64,000 nt of DNA from Mobula hypostoma (Eukaryota): contig NC_086097.1 in assembly GCF_963921235.1 (NCBI RefSeq), positions 54,066,001 through 54,130,000 on the forward strand. The letters run 5' to 3'. This document shows, in pieces, positions 29,510-37,440 of this stretch (positions are counted from its first letter, which is position 1; each line of letters starts with the position of its first letter). Position numbers and translations under genes: made by a program. The notes beneath the pieces were generated by a model. The model worked only from the letters and a program-made list of their open reading frames with translations. It made no database searches and was not told the origin of the DNA.

Positions 29510-31555
29510 ATGTGCAAAATCAGTTCATCCCCCAGAGAAGGAAGGATTCAAAGGGGGGAAAGTGGCCACAGTGGTTGACAAAGGAAGTCAGAGATAGCAT
29601 AGCATTAAAAAAGAAGTATAACAGAGCTAAGGTGAGTGGGAAGATGGATGATTGGGAAATTTTTAAGGAGCAACAGAACTTAACTAAAAAGGCAATACGG
29701 GGAGAAAAAATGAGGTATGAACGCGAGCTAGCTAGGAATATAAAGGAGGATAGCAAAAGTTTTTTTAGGCATGTGAAGAGAAGGAAGCCCTTGAAGAATG
29801 AATTGGGAGAAATTGTTATGGGAAACAGAGAAATGACAGACGAATTTAATAAGTACTTTGGATCTGTCTTCACTAGGGAAGACACAAGCAATCTCCCAGA
29901 TATATGGATGGGCCAAGGACATAGGGTAACAGAGGAACTGAAACAGATTGACATTAGGAAGGAAACGGTGATAAGTAGACTGATGGGACTGAAGGCTAAC
30001 AAATCCCCAGGTCCAGATGGTCTGCATCCTAGGGTACTAAAGGAGGTGGCTCTGGAAATTGCGGATGCATTGGTGATCATTTTCCAATGTTCCTTAGATT
30101 CAGGATCAGTTCCTGAGGATTGGCGAATGGCTAATGTTATCCCACTTTTTAAGAAAGGAGGGAGGGAGAAAACAGAGAACTATCGCCCTGTTAGCCTAAC
30201 ATCAGTAGTGGGGAAGATGCTAGAGTTCATTATTAAAGATGAAATAGCAGCATATCTTGATAGCAGTGATAGGATTGGGCCGAGCCAGCATGGATTTACC
30301 AAGGGCAAATCATGCTTGACTAATCTATTGGAGTTTTTCGAGGATGTAACCAGGAAGATAGACGCGGGAGATCCAGTGGATGTGGTGTACCTTGACTTTC
30401 AGAAGGCATTCGATAAGGTACCACAAAGGAGATTGGTGGGTAAAATCAGAGCTCATGGCATTCTGGGGAGGATATTGACATGGTTAGAAAACTGGTTGGC
30501 AGATAGAAAGCAAAGGGTGGCAGTGAATGGGTGTTTCTCGGAATGGCAGGTGGTGACTAGTGGGGTGCCACAGGGCTCGGTATTGGGACCACAGCTGTTT
30601 ACGATTTACGTCAATGATTTAGAGGAAAGCATTGTGAATAACATCAGCAAGTTTGCTGATGATGTGATGAGGATGTTAGGAGAATTCAAGGTGACTTGGA
30701 TGGGCTGGGTGAGTGGGCAGAAACTTGGCAGATGGCGTTTAATGTGAATAAGTGTGAGGTTATTCACTTTGGGAGCAAGAACAGGAAGGCAGATTATTAT
30801 CTGAACGGTGTGGAGTTAGGTAAGGGTGAAATACAAAGAGATCTAGGAGTACTTGTTCATCTGTCTCTGAAGGTGAATGAGCAAGTGCAGCGGGCAGTGA
30901 AGAAGGCTAATGGAATGTTGGCCTTTATTACAAAGGGAATTGAGTACAAGAGCAAGGAAATCCTTTTGCATTTGTACGGGGCCCTGGTGAGACCACACTT
31001 GGAGTATTGTGTGCAGTTTTGGTCTCCAGGGTTAAGGAAGGACATCCTGGCTGTGAAGGAGGTGCAGCGTGTGTTTACTAGGTTAATTCCTGGGATGTCC
31101 GGACTGTCTTACGCGGAGAGGTTAGAGAGACTGGGCTTGTACACGCTGGAATTAAGGAGATTGAGGGGGGATCTGATTGAGACATATAAGATTATTAAGG
31201 GATTGGACAAGATAGAGGCAGGAAATATGTTCCAGATGCTGGGAGAGTCCAGTACCAGAGGGCATGGTTTAAGAATAAGGGGGTAGGTCATTTAGGACGG
31301 AGTTGAGGAGGAACTTCTTCTCCCAGAGAGTTGTGGAGGTGTGGAACGCGCTGCCTCAGAAGGCAGTGGAGACCAATTCTCTGGATGCTTTTGAGAAGGA
31401 GCTAGATAGGTATCTTATGGATAGGGGAATCAAGGGTTATGGGGACAAGGCAGGAACCGGGTATTGATAGTAAATGATCAGCCATGATCTCAGAATGGCA
31501 GTGCAGGCTCAAAGGGCCAAATGGTCTACTTCTGCACCTATTGTCTATTGTCTAT
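29510..31555 (+). mobile_element. Young CR1 LINE ORF2, 5'-truncated
   Basis: ORFs 29512..30747 and 30696..31286 with KSPGPDG, YLDFQKAFDKV, GVPQGSVLGP and FADD. (CTATTGT)n tail; TGAAACA TSD at 29503-29509 and 31556-31562. Confidence 0.96.
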
Positions 31556-33131: not shown

Positions 33132-33966
33132 ACATAGAAACATAGAAAACCTACAGCACAATATAGGCCCTTCAGCCCACAAAGTTGTGCTGAACATGTC
33201 GCTACCTTAGAAATTACTAGGCTTACCCATAGCTCTCTATTTTACTAAGCTCCATGTACCTATCCAAAAGTCTCTTAAAAGACCCTATCGTATCCGCCTC
33301 CACCACCAAGGCCAGCAGCCCATTCCACACACTCACCACTCTCTGTGTAAAAAACTTACCCCTGACATCTCCTCTGTACCTACTCCCCAGCACCTTAAAC
33401 CTGTGTCCTCTTGTGGCAGCCATTTCAACCCTGGGAAAAAGCCTCTGACTATCCACACGATCAATGCCTCTCATCATCTTATACACCTCTATTAGATCAG
33501 CTCTCATCCTCCTCCGCTCCAAGGAGAAAAGGCCGAGTTCATTCAATCTGCTTTCATAAGGCATGCTCCCCAATCCAGGCAACATCCTTGTAAATTTTCG
33601 CTGCACCCTTTCTATGGTTTCCACATCTTTCCTGTAGTGAGGTGACCAGAACTGAGCACAGTACTCCAAGTGGGGTCTGACCAGAGTCCTATATAGCTGC
33701 AACATTACCTCTCGGCTCCTGAATTTTATTCTACGATTAATGAAGGCCAATACACCGTATGCCTTCTTAACCACAGAGCCAACCTGCACAGCTGCTTTGA
33801 GCGTCCTATGGATTCGAACCCCAAGATCCCTCTGATCCTCCACGCTGCCAAGAGTCTTACCATTAATACTATATTCTTCCATCATATTTGATCTACCAAA
33901 ATGAACCACTTCACACTTATCTGGGTTGAACTCCACCTGCCACTTCTCAACCCAGTTTTGCATCCT
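33132..33966 (-). mobile_element. Young CR1 3' fragment
   Basis: Open frame within ORF 33223..34077 (WQVEFNPDKCEVVHFG...LVRPHLEYCAQFW...TRGH...FFTQRVV). Confidence 0.95.
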
Positions 33967-34549
33967 AACTTCTGCAAATGCACTCTGGATAGTATCCAAT
34001 CTGGTTGCATCATGGCCTGGTATGGAAACACTATGCCCAGGAATGGAAAAGTTTACAAACTGTGTTGGATACCTCATCGGTTAAGCCCTCCTCATCATTG
34101 GGACCATTTACAAAGAGCGCTGCCAGAAGAAAGCAGCAACCATCATCAAAGACCCCCATCAACCCATGCTCTCTTTTCACTACTACTGTCAGGCAGGAGG
34201 TACAGCAGCCTTTGATCCCACATCACGAGCATCAGGACCAGTTAGTACCCTTCAACCATCAGGCTCCTGAACCCAACCAGTGGGGATAATTTCACTCACC
34301 TCAATGCTGAAGTGACTCCACAACCTATAGATTCACTTTCAAGGATTCTACTGCTCATTTTCTCAGTATTATTTATTTATTTCTTTTGATTATTTGCACA
34401 ATTATGATTTGTTTTCTTGAGCACATGGGTTGTTTTTCAGTCTTTATGTACAGTATAGTTTTCAAAAATTCGATTGTATTTCTTTATTTCCCTGTTAAGT
34501 ACCTTCAAGAAATGAATCTCAAGGTCGTATGTGGTGATATATATATAGT

Positions 34550-34624
34550 CAGTCAGTCAGTGGGTGCTGTCCCGAACCCGGGGTTGGCGGCTATGCACCT
34601 CCATCTCATTCGATCTTGCGACAG
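34550..34624 (-). mobile_element. RTE-like LINE extreme 3' end with (ACTG)n tail
   Basis: LSQDRMRWRCIAANPGFGTAP resembles the RTE-clade C-terminal .QDR..WR motif, followed by ACTGACTGACTG. ATATATAGT is duplicated around the whole insert. Confidence 0.6.
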
Positions 34625-34787
34625 CACCATGTGCAGCTTCTCCTCCAGTTTGTTCTCGCTGGCCAGCTTGTCTCCGCCTGCCGCCGCCCCCACCGAACTC
34701 GAGCCCGAGGACATGTCGGCCTCCAGCCATGGCCGCTTCTTCGAGCTCAGCCCTTCCTTAGGCAGAGGCCTTGGGCAGGTCCAGACA
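34622..34787 (-). pseudogene. ZFTRAF1: Circularly permuted retro-fragment of ZFTRAF1/CYHR1 exon 1
   Basis: The minus strand reads CLDLPKAS (34787-34764), then EGLSSKKRPWLEAD...ASENKLEEKLHMVL (34756-34622). The vertebrate CYHR1/ZFTRAF1 sequence I recall runs KKR..[25 protein letters not shown], so the two blocks are swapped. Confidence 0.75.
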
Positions 34788-35531
34788 TATATAGTACGTA
34801 CATTGATAATACCTTTACTTCGAACTAGGAACAAAACATCAACACTATAGATGCTGTCTAACCCACAGAGTTCCTCCAGGAAATTGTACATGCAAATCAT
34901 TTTATGCAATGACAAAACAATTATAATTGCATTGCCACAGTTACTGCCACCTTTCAATGTTGATATACTGAAGGTCATAAAAGGAAAGATGCACAACATG
35001 TTTTTCAAGCTGGCAAGAAGCACAAGCTGAATGAACAGTTCAGAGAAATAATAGAATTTGTGTGGGATCAATTTGCATACAGTAAATTGGTGTATGTACA
35101 TACAGTGGATTCTAGTTAATTGGGACACTTCAGGACCAGTAAATTTTGGCCCAGTTAAGCAGCTGCCCTAATTAGCCAAAGTTTCATGGAAATAGTCAAA
35201 AAGGTATAAAAAAGACAAACTACAATTTAACTGAGTAACCAGCTACATATTTAAATAAATAAACAAAACAAATTAGAACATTGTCAATTCTACTACAATA
35301 CTCTAAAATTGGTATTTCTTCCTAATAGTTATCGACGGAGGAACTATTCCAATGTATGCTGCAGTGCTTTTTTGATCGATTGTAAACAAAAATCAGTGTA
35401 GACACCTAGTGGAGATAATGGACTGCCTTCATGCAATCCTTTCGGTGATTGCATCTTCCAAATCTTCATTTTCATGGTAACATTCATGATGATTGTTAAT
35501 ACCTTCAAATTATTCTTTGTTCCTACCTTGT

Positions 35532-37440
35532 TCAAAGTTCAAAGATCAAAGTAAATTTATTGTCAAAGTACACATATGTCACCATATAAAATGCTGAGAA
35601 TCATTTTGTTGCAGACATACTCAATAAATCCATAATTGGATAACAATCATAACAGTTACTCCTTTCTTTCAAAAGCCTTTATGATTGAGGGTTAATAACT
35701 GTTTCTGAACCTGATGCTGTGAGTTCTATAGCTCCTGTACCTTCTTCCTGATGGCAGCAGCGAGAAGAGAGCATATCCTGGGTGGTCGGGATCCCTGAGC
35801 ACGGACACAGCTGTCCTGCACCAACATTTCATATAGTTATGCTCGATAGAGGGGAGGGCTTTACCCATGATGGACTGCGCCATATCCACTACTTCTTGTA
35901 GAATTTTCTGTTCAAGGGCATTCGTGTTTCTATACCAGGCCATGATGCAGCCGGTCAATATACTCTCCACTACACCGAAATAGAAGTTTGTCACAGTTTT
36001 AGATGTCATGCCTGATTTTTGCAAAGTCCTAAGGAATAGAGGTGCCTCTATGCTTTCTTCATAATTGCACTTACGTGCTGGGCCTAGAACAGGTCCTCCA
36101 AAATAATAACACCGAGGAATTTAAAATTGTTGACCCTCCCCATTTCTGACCCTCCAGTGAGGACTGGCTTGTGGACTGCTGGTTTCCTCCTCCTGAAGTC
36201 AATAATCAGCTCCTTGGTCTTGCTGACATTGAGTGAGAGGTTTCTGTTATGGCACCACTCAGCCAGATTTTCAATCTCACTCTTATACACTGATTCATCA
36301 TCTCCTTTGGTTTGGCCTATGGCAGGGGTGACATCAATGGGGCTGTGCTTAGCCACACAATCGTAAGTGTAAAGTGAGCAGAGCAGGGAGCTAAGTACAC
36401 AGCCTTGTGGTGTACCTGTGCTGATGGAGATCGTGAAGGAGATGTTGTTGCCAATCCAAGCTGACTGGGATCTGCAAGTGAGAAAATCGAGGATCCATTT
36501 GCACAAGGAGGTATTGAGGCCTACACCTTGGAGCTTATTGATTAGTTTTGAGGGGATAATGGTATGAATGACGAGCTGTAGTCGATAAGAACATCCTGAT
36601 GTATGTATCTTTGCTGTCCAGGTGTTCCAGGGTTGCGTGAAGAGCTAATGAAATGGTATCTGTTGTTGACCTGTTAATCCAGTAGGCAAATTGGAGCACT
36701 TCCAAGTCACTTTTCAGGCAGGAGCTGATATGTTTCATCACCAACCTCTCACAACACTTCATCACTGTGGATGTAAGCGCTACCAGATGATAGTCGTTGA
36801 AGCAGATCATCATGTTCTTCTTGGGCACTGTTATAACTGAAGAGTGCTTGAGACAGCAGGGTACCTCAGGCTGCCAAAACAAGAGGTTAAAGATTTCAGT
36901 GAACACTCCAGCCTGTTGATCAGCACAGGTCTTTAGTACCCGGCCAGGTACGCTGTCTGAGCTGGATGCTTTTCATGGGTTCTCCCTCCAGAAGGCTGCT
37001 CGTACGTTGGCGTCAGAGACTGAAATCACAGGATCAGCGGGGGCTGTGAGAGCTCTTGAAGCTTCCTCCATGTTTTAATGGTCAAAGCAAGCATAGAAGC
37101 TATTGAGCTCAGTTGGAAACGAAGCCATACTGTCTCCTATGTAGTTTGATTTAACTTTATAAGAGGTGCTAGTATTCAAGCACTGCCCCAACTGTCGAAC
37201 ATCCTTTGCTGATTCACGGTTAGTCCGGGATTACCACTTTGCCTGTGAGATGGTTTTCTGGAGGTAGTACCTACAGCTCTTGTAACTTTCCTGGTCATTG
37301 GACTTGAATGCTTCTGATATGGCTCTCAGCAGGTTGTGGATTATTTATGTGGATGGTTTATCCAGGGCTTCTGTCTGGGAGAAACTCTGAATGCCTTTGT
37401 GCAGAGACACTCATTTACAACTGTTTTAGTGAAGTCCCTA
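35532..37440 (-). mobile_element. Decayed Rex1/Babar LINE
   Basis: ORFs 36535..36906, 36084..36506 and 35692..36024 with [14 protein letters not shown] and SGRRYRS. Confidence 0.92.

Follow-up and report, generated by a model that had tools for sequence, protein, structure and literature searches.

A retroposon family of Mobula hypostoma that carries a circularly permuted segment of ZFTRAF1 exon 1

How does a piece of a conserved coding exon come to lie, with its two parts in exchanged order, inside a small retroposed insert? The question is raised by a 64,000-nucleotide (nt) stretch of Mobula hypostoma DNA (assembly GCF_963921235.1, contig NC_086097.1, positions 54,066,001 to 54,130,000), which in its full length we call the window. 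On its minus strand is an insert of 237 base pairs (bp) in which the 3' end of exon 1 of the host gene ZFTRAF1 (CYHR1) comes before the middle of the same exon, followed by the end of a long interspersed nuclear element (LINE). A first-pass annotation of the window had taken this insert for the direct product of a circular RNA (circRNA) copied at this locus. We find instead that it is almost certainly a 5'-truncated daughter copy of a non-autonomous retroposon family of about 590 bp, whose members carry one contiguous segment of the parent exon in exact circular permutation. Our full statement, that the window copy is a truncated daughter and that the founder of its family arose from a circular or once-nicked exon-1 RNA copied by the LINE enzyme, seems to us evenly balanced between right and wrong.

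The insert in the window and its family

The insert occupies positions 34550-34786 and is flanked by perfect 9-bp target-site duplications (ACTATATAT on the minus strand, ATATATAGT on the plus), with copies at 34795-34787 and 34549-34541. Measured in short intervals, the GC fraction is 0.55-0.60 across the insert, compared with 0.30-0.39 in the flanks. Both the duplications and this contrast bear out the initial description of a GC-rich retroposed insert. In translation of the minus strand, block A is in one frame, and block B together with the ...SQDRMRWRCIAANPGFGTAP tail is in another. The product of block B is EGLSSKKRPWLEAD...KLEEKLHMVL, and the same frame continues through SQDRMRWRCIAANPGFGTAPTD to a stop within (ACTG)3. 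The order of the blocks is as first described, while their boundaries shift slightly: block A is at 34786-34759, block B at 34758-34621, and the LINE-derived part, with its terminal repeat, at 34620-34550. The features are listed below in the orientation of the element; parent positions are numbered with the start codon of ZFTRAF1 at 401 and the end of exon 1 at 727.

34787..34795, minus strand: target-site duplication, 5' copy in element orientation; ACTATATAT, identical to 34541-34549
34759..34786, minus strand: block A, truncated; last 28 of the family's 40 nt, parent 696-723, the 3' end of ZFTRAF1 exon 1
34758..34759, minus strand: A-to-B swap junction; parent 723 joined to 546, family-wide
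34621..34758, minus strand: block B; 138 nt including the AG ahead of GAAGGG, parent 546-683, mid exon 1, native frame EGLSSKKRP...KLEEKLHMVL
34562..34620, minus strand: LINE-derived 3' tail; last ~20 codons of the partner LINE open reading frame (QDRxRWRCIAANPGFGTAP), blunt join with block B
34550..34561, minus strand: (ACTG)3 terminal repeat; contains the LINE stop codon
34541..34549, minus strand: target-site duplication, 3' copy

All genome searches were made in the window's own 3.48-Gb assembly. With the insert as query, a first look returned 1,279 candidates, and each of the 40 matches that were scored covers nt 3-237 of the query at 89-91% identity. The similarity does not stop where the window copy starts: it extends further upstream in 28 of the 29 other fetched loci, and in the 29th (L030) it does so after a small shift. 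These copies share up to ~360 further 5' nt and a common start, and the full-length element is ~590-600 bp long. Using the upstream part as query gave 1,513 candidates; all 29 of the new loci fetched from this search are near-full-length, with head, block A, block B and tail.

The motif spanning the A-to-B junction has 413 exact matches in the genome, compared with none for a reversed control. Copy statistics here and below refer to 67 sampled family copies, unless another number is stated. Since the exact motif is present in 43 of the 67, the 413 matches imply at least ~640 junction-holding copies. Copies deviate from the majority base by 3.0-8.8% (mean 5.2%). Their 5' start points vary, with 34 copies beginning within the first 25 nt and the rest further in, and by a crude test at least 7 nt are common to both ends in 34 of the 67, many of these repeats being 9-13 nt long. 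The window copy corresponds to element nt 358-596; the first 12 nt of block A are lost by 5' truncation. It differs from the family majority at 20 of 227 positions and is among the more decayed copies. The window locus itself is an ordinary decayed, 5'-truncated repeat copy.

The host segment and the partner LINE

Against the longer proteins of the protein collection, the window's own block B gave nothing at E≤0.01. Because the window copy is decayed, we used a less decayed, near-majority copy (L024) as query. Its block B matches ZFTRAF1/CYHR1 of sawfish, catshark and two skates, with a best E value of 9.5e-8 against 5.8 billion sequences and an identity of 54-69% to these four cartilaginous-fish orthologues. 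The genome's own exon 1, aligned to blocks A and B of nine full-length copies, is 91-97.5% identical. We counted this much closer match to the genome's own gene as evidence for the host origin of the piece. Together, the protein matches and the alignment uphold the proposal that the insert contains ZFTRAF1 exon-1 sequence with A before B.

The parent gene, found with the sawfish protein, lies on contig C5 and has four coding exons. Its first exon (locus L034, on the minus strand) has 327 coding nt, ends ...VYQ and is followed by GTACAG. Ahead of exon 2, which opens with CTNGH, stand a pyrimidine run and an AG; this settles where exon 1 ends and intron 1 begins. As the first-pass annotation had anticipated for the parent, exon 1 is colinear, in the normal B-then-A order. 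A tandem duplication in the parent locus is rejected as the source of the exchanged order, as there is none within 3.3 kb. The converse possibility, that the gene exon was derived from the repeat, is also rejected: the exon, which is colinear, is conserved in four further cartilaginous fishes, so the direction is from gene to repeat. Sequencing runs labelled as nine organisms contain 37-79% of the sampled words from the parent exon-1 stretch (L034:1400-2100), indicating that close relatives have been sequenced.

Alignment of the nine full-length copies places element nt 347-386 on parent 684-723 and element nt 387-524 on parent 546-683. These end points recur across the sampled copies. Block B starts at parent 546 in 63 of the 67 and ends at 683 in the same number; block A starts at 684 in 47 (at 682-685 in 65) and ends at 723 in 58. 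The element therefore carries one contiguous 178-nt parent segment (546-723), opened at 683|684 and closed from 723 to 546, which is an exact circular permutation. No other sequence of the parent locus is found in the element. Only 3 of the 178 positions have a majority base other than that of the parent. A single capture, in the founder, brought in the host piece, and every copy inherited it.

At the swap junction, the element reads ...CTA|AGGAAGGG...; the parent has CCAG between CTA and the intron, and an AG ahead of GAAGGG. The junction can be read in two ways. In one, 723 is joined to 546 without loss, 4 nt short of the donor; in the other, the donor at 727 is joined to 548, directly after the AG, and 2 nt (CC) are then lost. 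Of the 67 sampled copies, 47 could be scored, and every one has the short form. The idea that the exon-1 donor had been joined to an AG-preceded site fits the junction only approximately, with block A ending at or within 4 nt of the donor and block B beginning after an AG; the longer form that a clean join would leave is discussed below with the origin of the founder.

What surrounds the host segment is LINE sequence. A search pattern allowing any base except T ahead of the tail found 108 places, compared with 0 for a control; the base is mostly G, which gives ...KRAQDRRRWR.... The LINE examples fetched (L073-L076) are 5'-truncated, share the last 72 nt with the family (tail plus repeat, element nt 525-596) at 89-93% identity, and all end in (ACTG)n. 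A 366-residue frame of this LINE matches RVT_1 at E 1.3e-28, and a longer copy, L076, encodes an endonuclease (PF03372) followed by RVT_1. From its 5' end to the tail the LINE measures ~3.4 kb, and its open reading frame ends in (ACTG)n, with no 3' untranslated region. The endonuclease starts GTWNVRTM.... We take this GTWNVR... start, the ...EGKRERGRQR..W.D... end and the overall build to resemble the RTE clade; a homologue search with the endonuclease part returned 11 matches with no informative clade names. The partner is likely to be a LINE of RTE-like build, carrying an apurinic/apyrimidinic-type endonuclease (APE) and a reverse transcriptase, and the tail of the insert is its C-terminal coding end, much as the first-pass annotation had suggested.

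The head of the family matches the other end of the same LINE. Family nt 123-334 match six of six LINE 5' regions at 82-87%, a stretch that includes the LINE's probable start codon, and ~40 family nt further upstream match its very 5' terminus; LINE nt ~43-142 are absent from the family. L076 has no 5' end, and therefore no match to the family head. A pattern for LINE copies running past the join between head and block A gave 2 matches, both of them family copies with small insertions or deletions. This pattern was blind to the LINE, because the LINE differs there by an 11-nt stretch; its 5' ends were reached by a protein route. A full-length member thus has the following order: ~50 nt of unmatched GC-rich sequence, ~40 nt of the LINE 5' terminus, LINE nt ~143-395 including the start codon, the 178-nt permuted turn, and the last 72 nt of the LINE ending in (ACTG)n. 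By this layout the family is evidently an internally deleted LINE that retains both ends, with the host insert at the deletion point. Two partner LINE copies (G000:C71:30574382-30575446 and 30577367-30578431) share a strand at a distance of 3 kb; their scores are nearly equal and their stops follow one pattern, as if a local tandem duplication had occurred.

The base ahead of CGCAAG at the tail join is T in the family and G in the LINE (...AAAAGAG before CGCAAG); in the parent, that T is followed by G. The CTGT microhomology that had been proposed for this join is absent. At the head join, the LINE runs on into CCCTTGCG at the point where block A begins in the family. Both joins fall at the same parental bond, 683|684.

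The family majority has a 93-codon open reading frame that runs from the LINE start codon to the LINE stop in (ACTG)n (full-length, for example, at L010:1146-1745; window 34553-34786 is its 3' part). Its last 22 LINE codons are in their native frame and block B is in the native ZFTRAF1 frame, while block A is not in its native frame. Selection on this chimeric frame is rejected: it is open in 40 of 66 copies, compared with 42.5 +/- 3.8 expected from substitutions alone in a simulation. Two ordinary classes of repeat are rejected as well. A short interspersed nuclear element with a small-RNA head of the RNA polymerase III (Pol III) type does not fit, as a transfer RNA (tRNA) scan of five full-length loci and an Rfam scan of L010 at E≤1 gave no match. 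An ordinary processed pseudogene of ZFTRAF1 does not fit the permuted order, the presence of only 178 nt of exon 1, the (ACTG)n tail or the hundreds of copies.

Individual copies show further variation. L021, L026 and L029 are without a block of ~25-30 nt near the 5' end that resembles an internal duplication. In L019, an insertion of ~640 bp separates the head of the family copy from the remainder. L003 and L023 lie on different contigs and are nearly identical in their 3' flanks; in both, the element is part of a larger duplicated or repeated unit. Around the insert in the window, positions 30663-31467 (plus strand), 33223-34080 (minus) and 35692-36972 (minus) hold C-terminal fragments of LINE reverse transcriptases, with motifs that by eye are CR1- or Rex1-like. 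The placement of the insert in a Rex1 3' untranslated region was not confirmed: its 305-bp flank is near single copy in the genome (9 candidates, with only ~45-nt partial matches), and the reading frames at 33223-34080 and 35692-36120 beside it have no Pfam match.

Origin of the founder

The window copy itself was in all likelihood inserted by the machinery of the partner LINE through target-primed reverse transcription, leaving the 9-bp target-site duplication. For the founder, a circular template is our best reading of the permuted segment. Block A starts at the base right after the last base of block B, for which the odds are about 1 in 178 if the break points are independent; the same arrangement follows naturally from a circle that was opened or entered at one point. 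In the sequence of events we propose, the LINE reverse transcriptase would have left the LINE RNA 72 nt from its 3' end and moved to a small circular, or once-nicked, ZFTRAF1 exon-1 RNA. It would have gone round that template exactly once, halting where it reached the beginning of its own product or, on a nicked RNA, the end, and then returned to the LINE RNA at about nt 395 and run on to the 5' end. A single turn is what one would expect of an enzyme that stops at either of these points. The product would be a LINE that had lost its interior and gained a permuted host insert, still mobilisable through the two LINE ends it kept.

The choice of RNA over DNA as the template rests on two observations. 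The right end of the captured segment is 0-4 nt from the exon 1/intron 1 boundary, where a DNA-level event would have no reason to end, and the product lies inside a copy of LINE RNA. On these grounds we favour an RNA circle copied by the LINE enzyme, a conclusion drawn from genome sequence that in our judgement comes close to an even chance of being correct. Its most specific form is more tentative: the family may be a germline record of a 178-180-nt circRNA from part of ZFTRAF1 exon 1, copied for one revolution in the middle of a LINE RNA by an RTE-type reverse transcriptase and then spread as a non-autonomous element of roughly a thousand copies.

Several observations weigh against an RNA circle as template. 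The swap junction is not a clean back-splice join, being either 4 nt off the donor or short of 2 nt, and the 2-nt-longer junction has no match genome-wide. The supposed acceptor is a cryptic AG within the first exon, and the 21 nt before it are by our own count only about 43% pyrimidine, which is weak for a splice acceptor. In the parent, AGG occurs both at 546-548, where block B starts, and at 726-728, across the donor, so that a DNA circle closed by microhomology would match the back-splice in sequence. Both joins between LINE and host sequence are blunt, with no shared base, an outcome more in keeping with end joining, or with end-to-end template jumps on broken molecules, than with an internal switch onto an intact circle. 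Finally, the first ~50 nt of the family, GC-rich and containing ACCATGG (for example in L010:1146-1200, L025 and L018), have no match in the six LINE 5' ends or in the neighbourhood of ZFTRAF1 exon 1.

The event originally proposed, in which an RTE enzyme primed at the window locus, switched to a ZFTRAF1 circRNA and stopped short of one turn, accounts for the target-site duplication and for the order of A, B and tail at this locus. We nevertheless consider it most improbable. Hundreds of copies elsewhere share both junctions of this insert, A-B and B-tail, as well as the three differences from the parent, and the window copy, at 20 of 227 positions from the family majority, is one of the more decayed. 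The 12 nt whose absence had suggested an incomplete revolution are present in longer copies, which hold one complete turn and then run into ~345 nt of LINE 5' sequence; their absence in the window is a truncation of that copy. Since the other copies contain sequence that it lacks, the window copy was not their source. Two further explanations concern the founder, and we regard both as unlikely, to a similar degree. In one, a 178-180-bp extrachromosomal DNA circle of the microDNA type, derived from the CpG-rich exon 1, was cut once and end-joined into a break in a genomic LINE that lost ~2.9 kb, and the product was then amplified. Small DNA circles favour GC-rich regions of the first-exon type, and exon 1 of ZFTRAF1, the source here, is such a region. 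Exactness of the permutation also fits, both outer joins lying at one bond; blunt joins lacking microhomology are those expected of a circle that is cut once and ligated, and the AGG at both ends of the segment in the parent could have mediated formation of the circle. This explanation nonetheless needs a 2.9-kb deletion and the capture of a circle at the same break. It also makes the position of the right end, within 0-4 nt of the exon-intron boundary, a coincidence of a few percent, and the context is a retroelement whose enzyme is known for template switching.

The other explanation dispenses with a circle. The founder could have been made by serial template switches on linear ZFTRAF1 RNA, for instance a free exon-1 splicing intermediate, with the enzyme passing from a 5' end to the 3' end of that molecule or of a second one, or by sampling of a transient tandem duplication. 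A free exon-1 intermediate would account for a segment that ends at the donor or close to it, and non-LTR (long terminal repeat) reverse transcriptases jump between template ends. Open-ended structured RNAs whose 5' and 3' ends are close can also give non-colinear junctions (Dong et al. 2016, PMC4897178). Independent switches would, however, have to meet the 1-in-178 coincidence at the start of block A, the parent locus contains no tandem duplication, and a jump within one molecule is topologically a circle. The exact permutation, the exon boundary and the setting within a LINE RNA copy are what lead us back to an RNA circle copied by the LINE enzyme.

Significance and comparison with known systems

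The family unites three things that are each known, namely an element made from both ends of a LINE, the capture of a host first exon, and a circular permutation exact to the base. We have not found this combination described: a literature search, with Repbase and Dfam outside its scope, gave no description of the family, and CYHR1 or ZFTRAF1 appeared in none of the papers listed. Two outer joins at one bond are the natural footprint of a circular or once-opened template that meets a LINE enzyme or the end-joining machinery, and whether the circle was RNA or DNA is directly testable in one species. If it was RNA, circRNA-derived sequence would have become a fixed component of a LINE-derived retroposon in a non-mammal, and the family would provide a natural read-out of a non-LTR enzyme on a circular template: one turn, then back to the LINE RNA. 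For genome annotation, the copies present themselves as scattered ZFTRAF1-like open frames, and they should be masked as repeats, not kept as gene fragments.

The closest relatives in construction are bipartite RTE-derived elements: Bov-A2 of ruminants, MAR4 and RTESINE1 of marsupials, and RTE1-N1_LA of elephant, whose head is given as '(5'-end of RTE)' in Table 1 of Ohshima (2013, PMC3747384). Like these elements, the present family has a head from the 5' end of its partner LINE and a tail that is the LINE 3' end with the same short terminal repeat; it encodes no enzyme, has no Pol III-type head, is flanked by target-site duplications and is frequently 5'-truncated. It differs, as far as the table goes, in having a circularly permuted 178-nt piece of a host coding exon between the LINE parts, and the placement of its partner in RTE is suggested by build and motifs.

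LINE template-switch chimeras, such as U6/L1 chimeric retrogenes, the tripartite chimeras in Magnaporthe (PMC2104539) and U6 pseudogenes (PMC4476161), likewise combine pieces of different RNAs, fused head to tail, with the 3' part of a LINE in a single retrocopy, implying jumps by the enzyme between templates. They are mostly single insertions of colinear pieces, whereas in the present family the enzyme would have returned to the LINE and the product stayed mobile. The SVA_F1 subfamily, which carries MAST2 exon 1 (PMC6928650), offers a parallel for the capture itself: there too, the GC-rich first exon of a host gene was fixed in a non-autonomous retrotransposon subfamily and amplified with it. 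In the account given in that source, the exon is colinear, at the 5' end, and was acquired through 5' transduction or splicing, whereas here the host piece is internal and permuted.

For a circular template, the nearest precedent is the set of circRNA-derived pseudogenes in mouse, where 33 circRFWD2-derived copies share an exon 6-exon 2 junction, have no poly(A) and are associated with retroelements, by a mechanism stated to be unknown (Dong et al. 2016, PMC4897178). In both cases, host exonic sequence is non-colinear and confined to the supposed circle, poly(A) is absent, many copies share one junction, and there is an association with retroelements. The circRFWD2 copies contain whole exons joined at annotated splice sites, and the circRNA has been observed. 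The present family, known from genome sequence, contains a 178-nt part of a single first exon, for which the acceptor would be a cryptic AG and the junction is 2-4 nt off the donor; in this cartilaginous fish, a LINE-derived element has carried the piece through the genome as an internal part.

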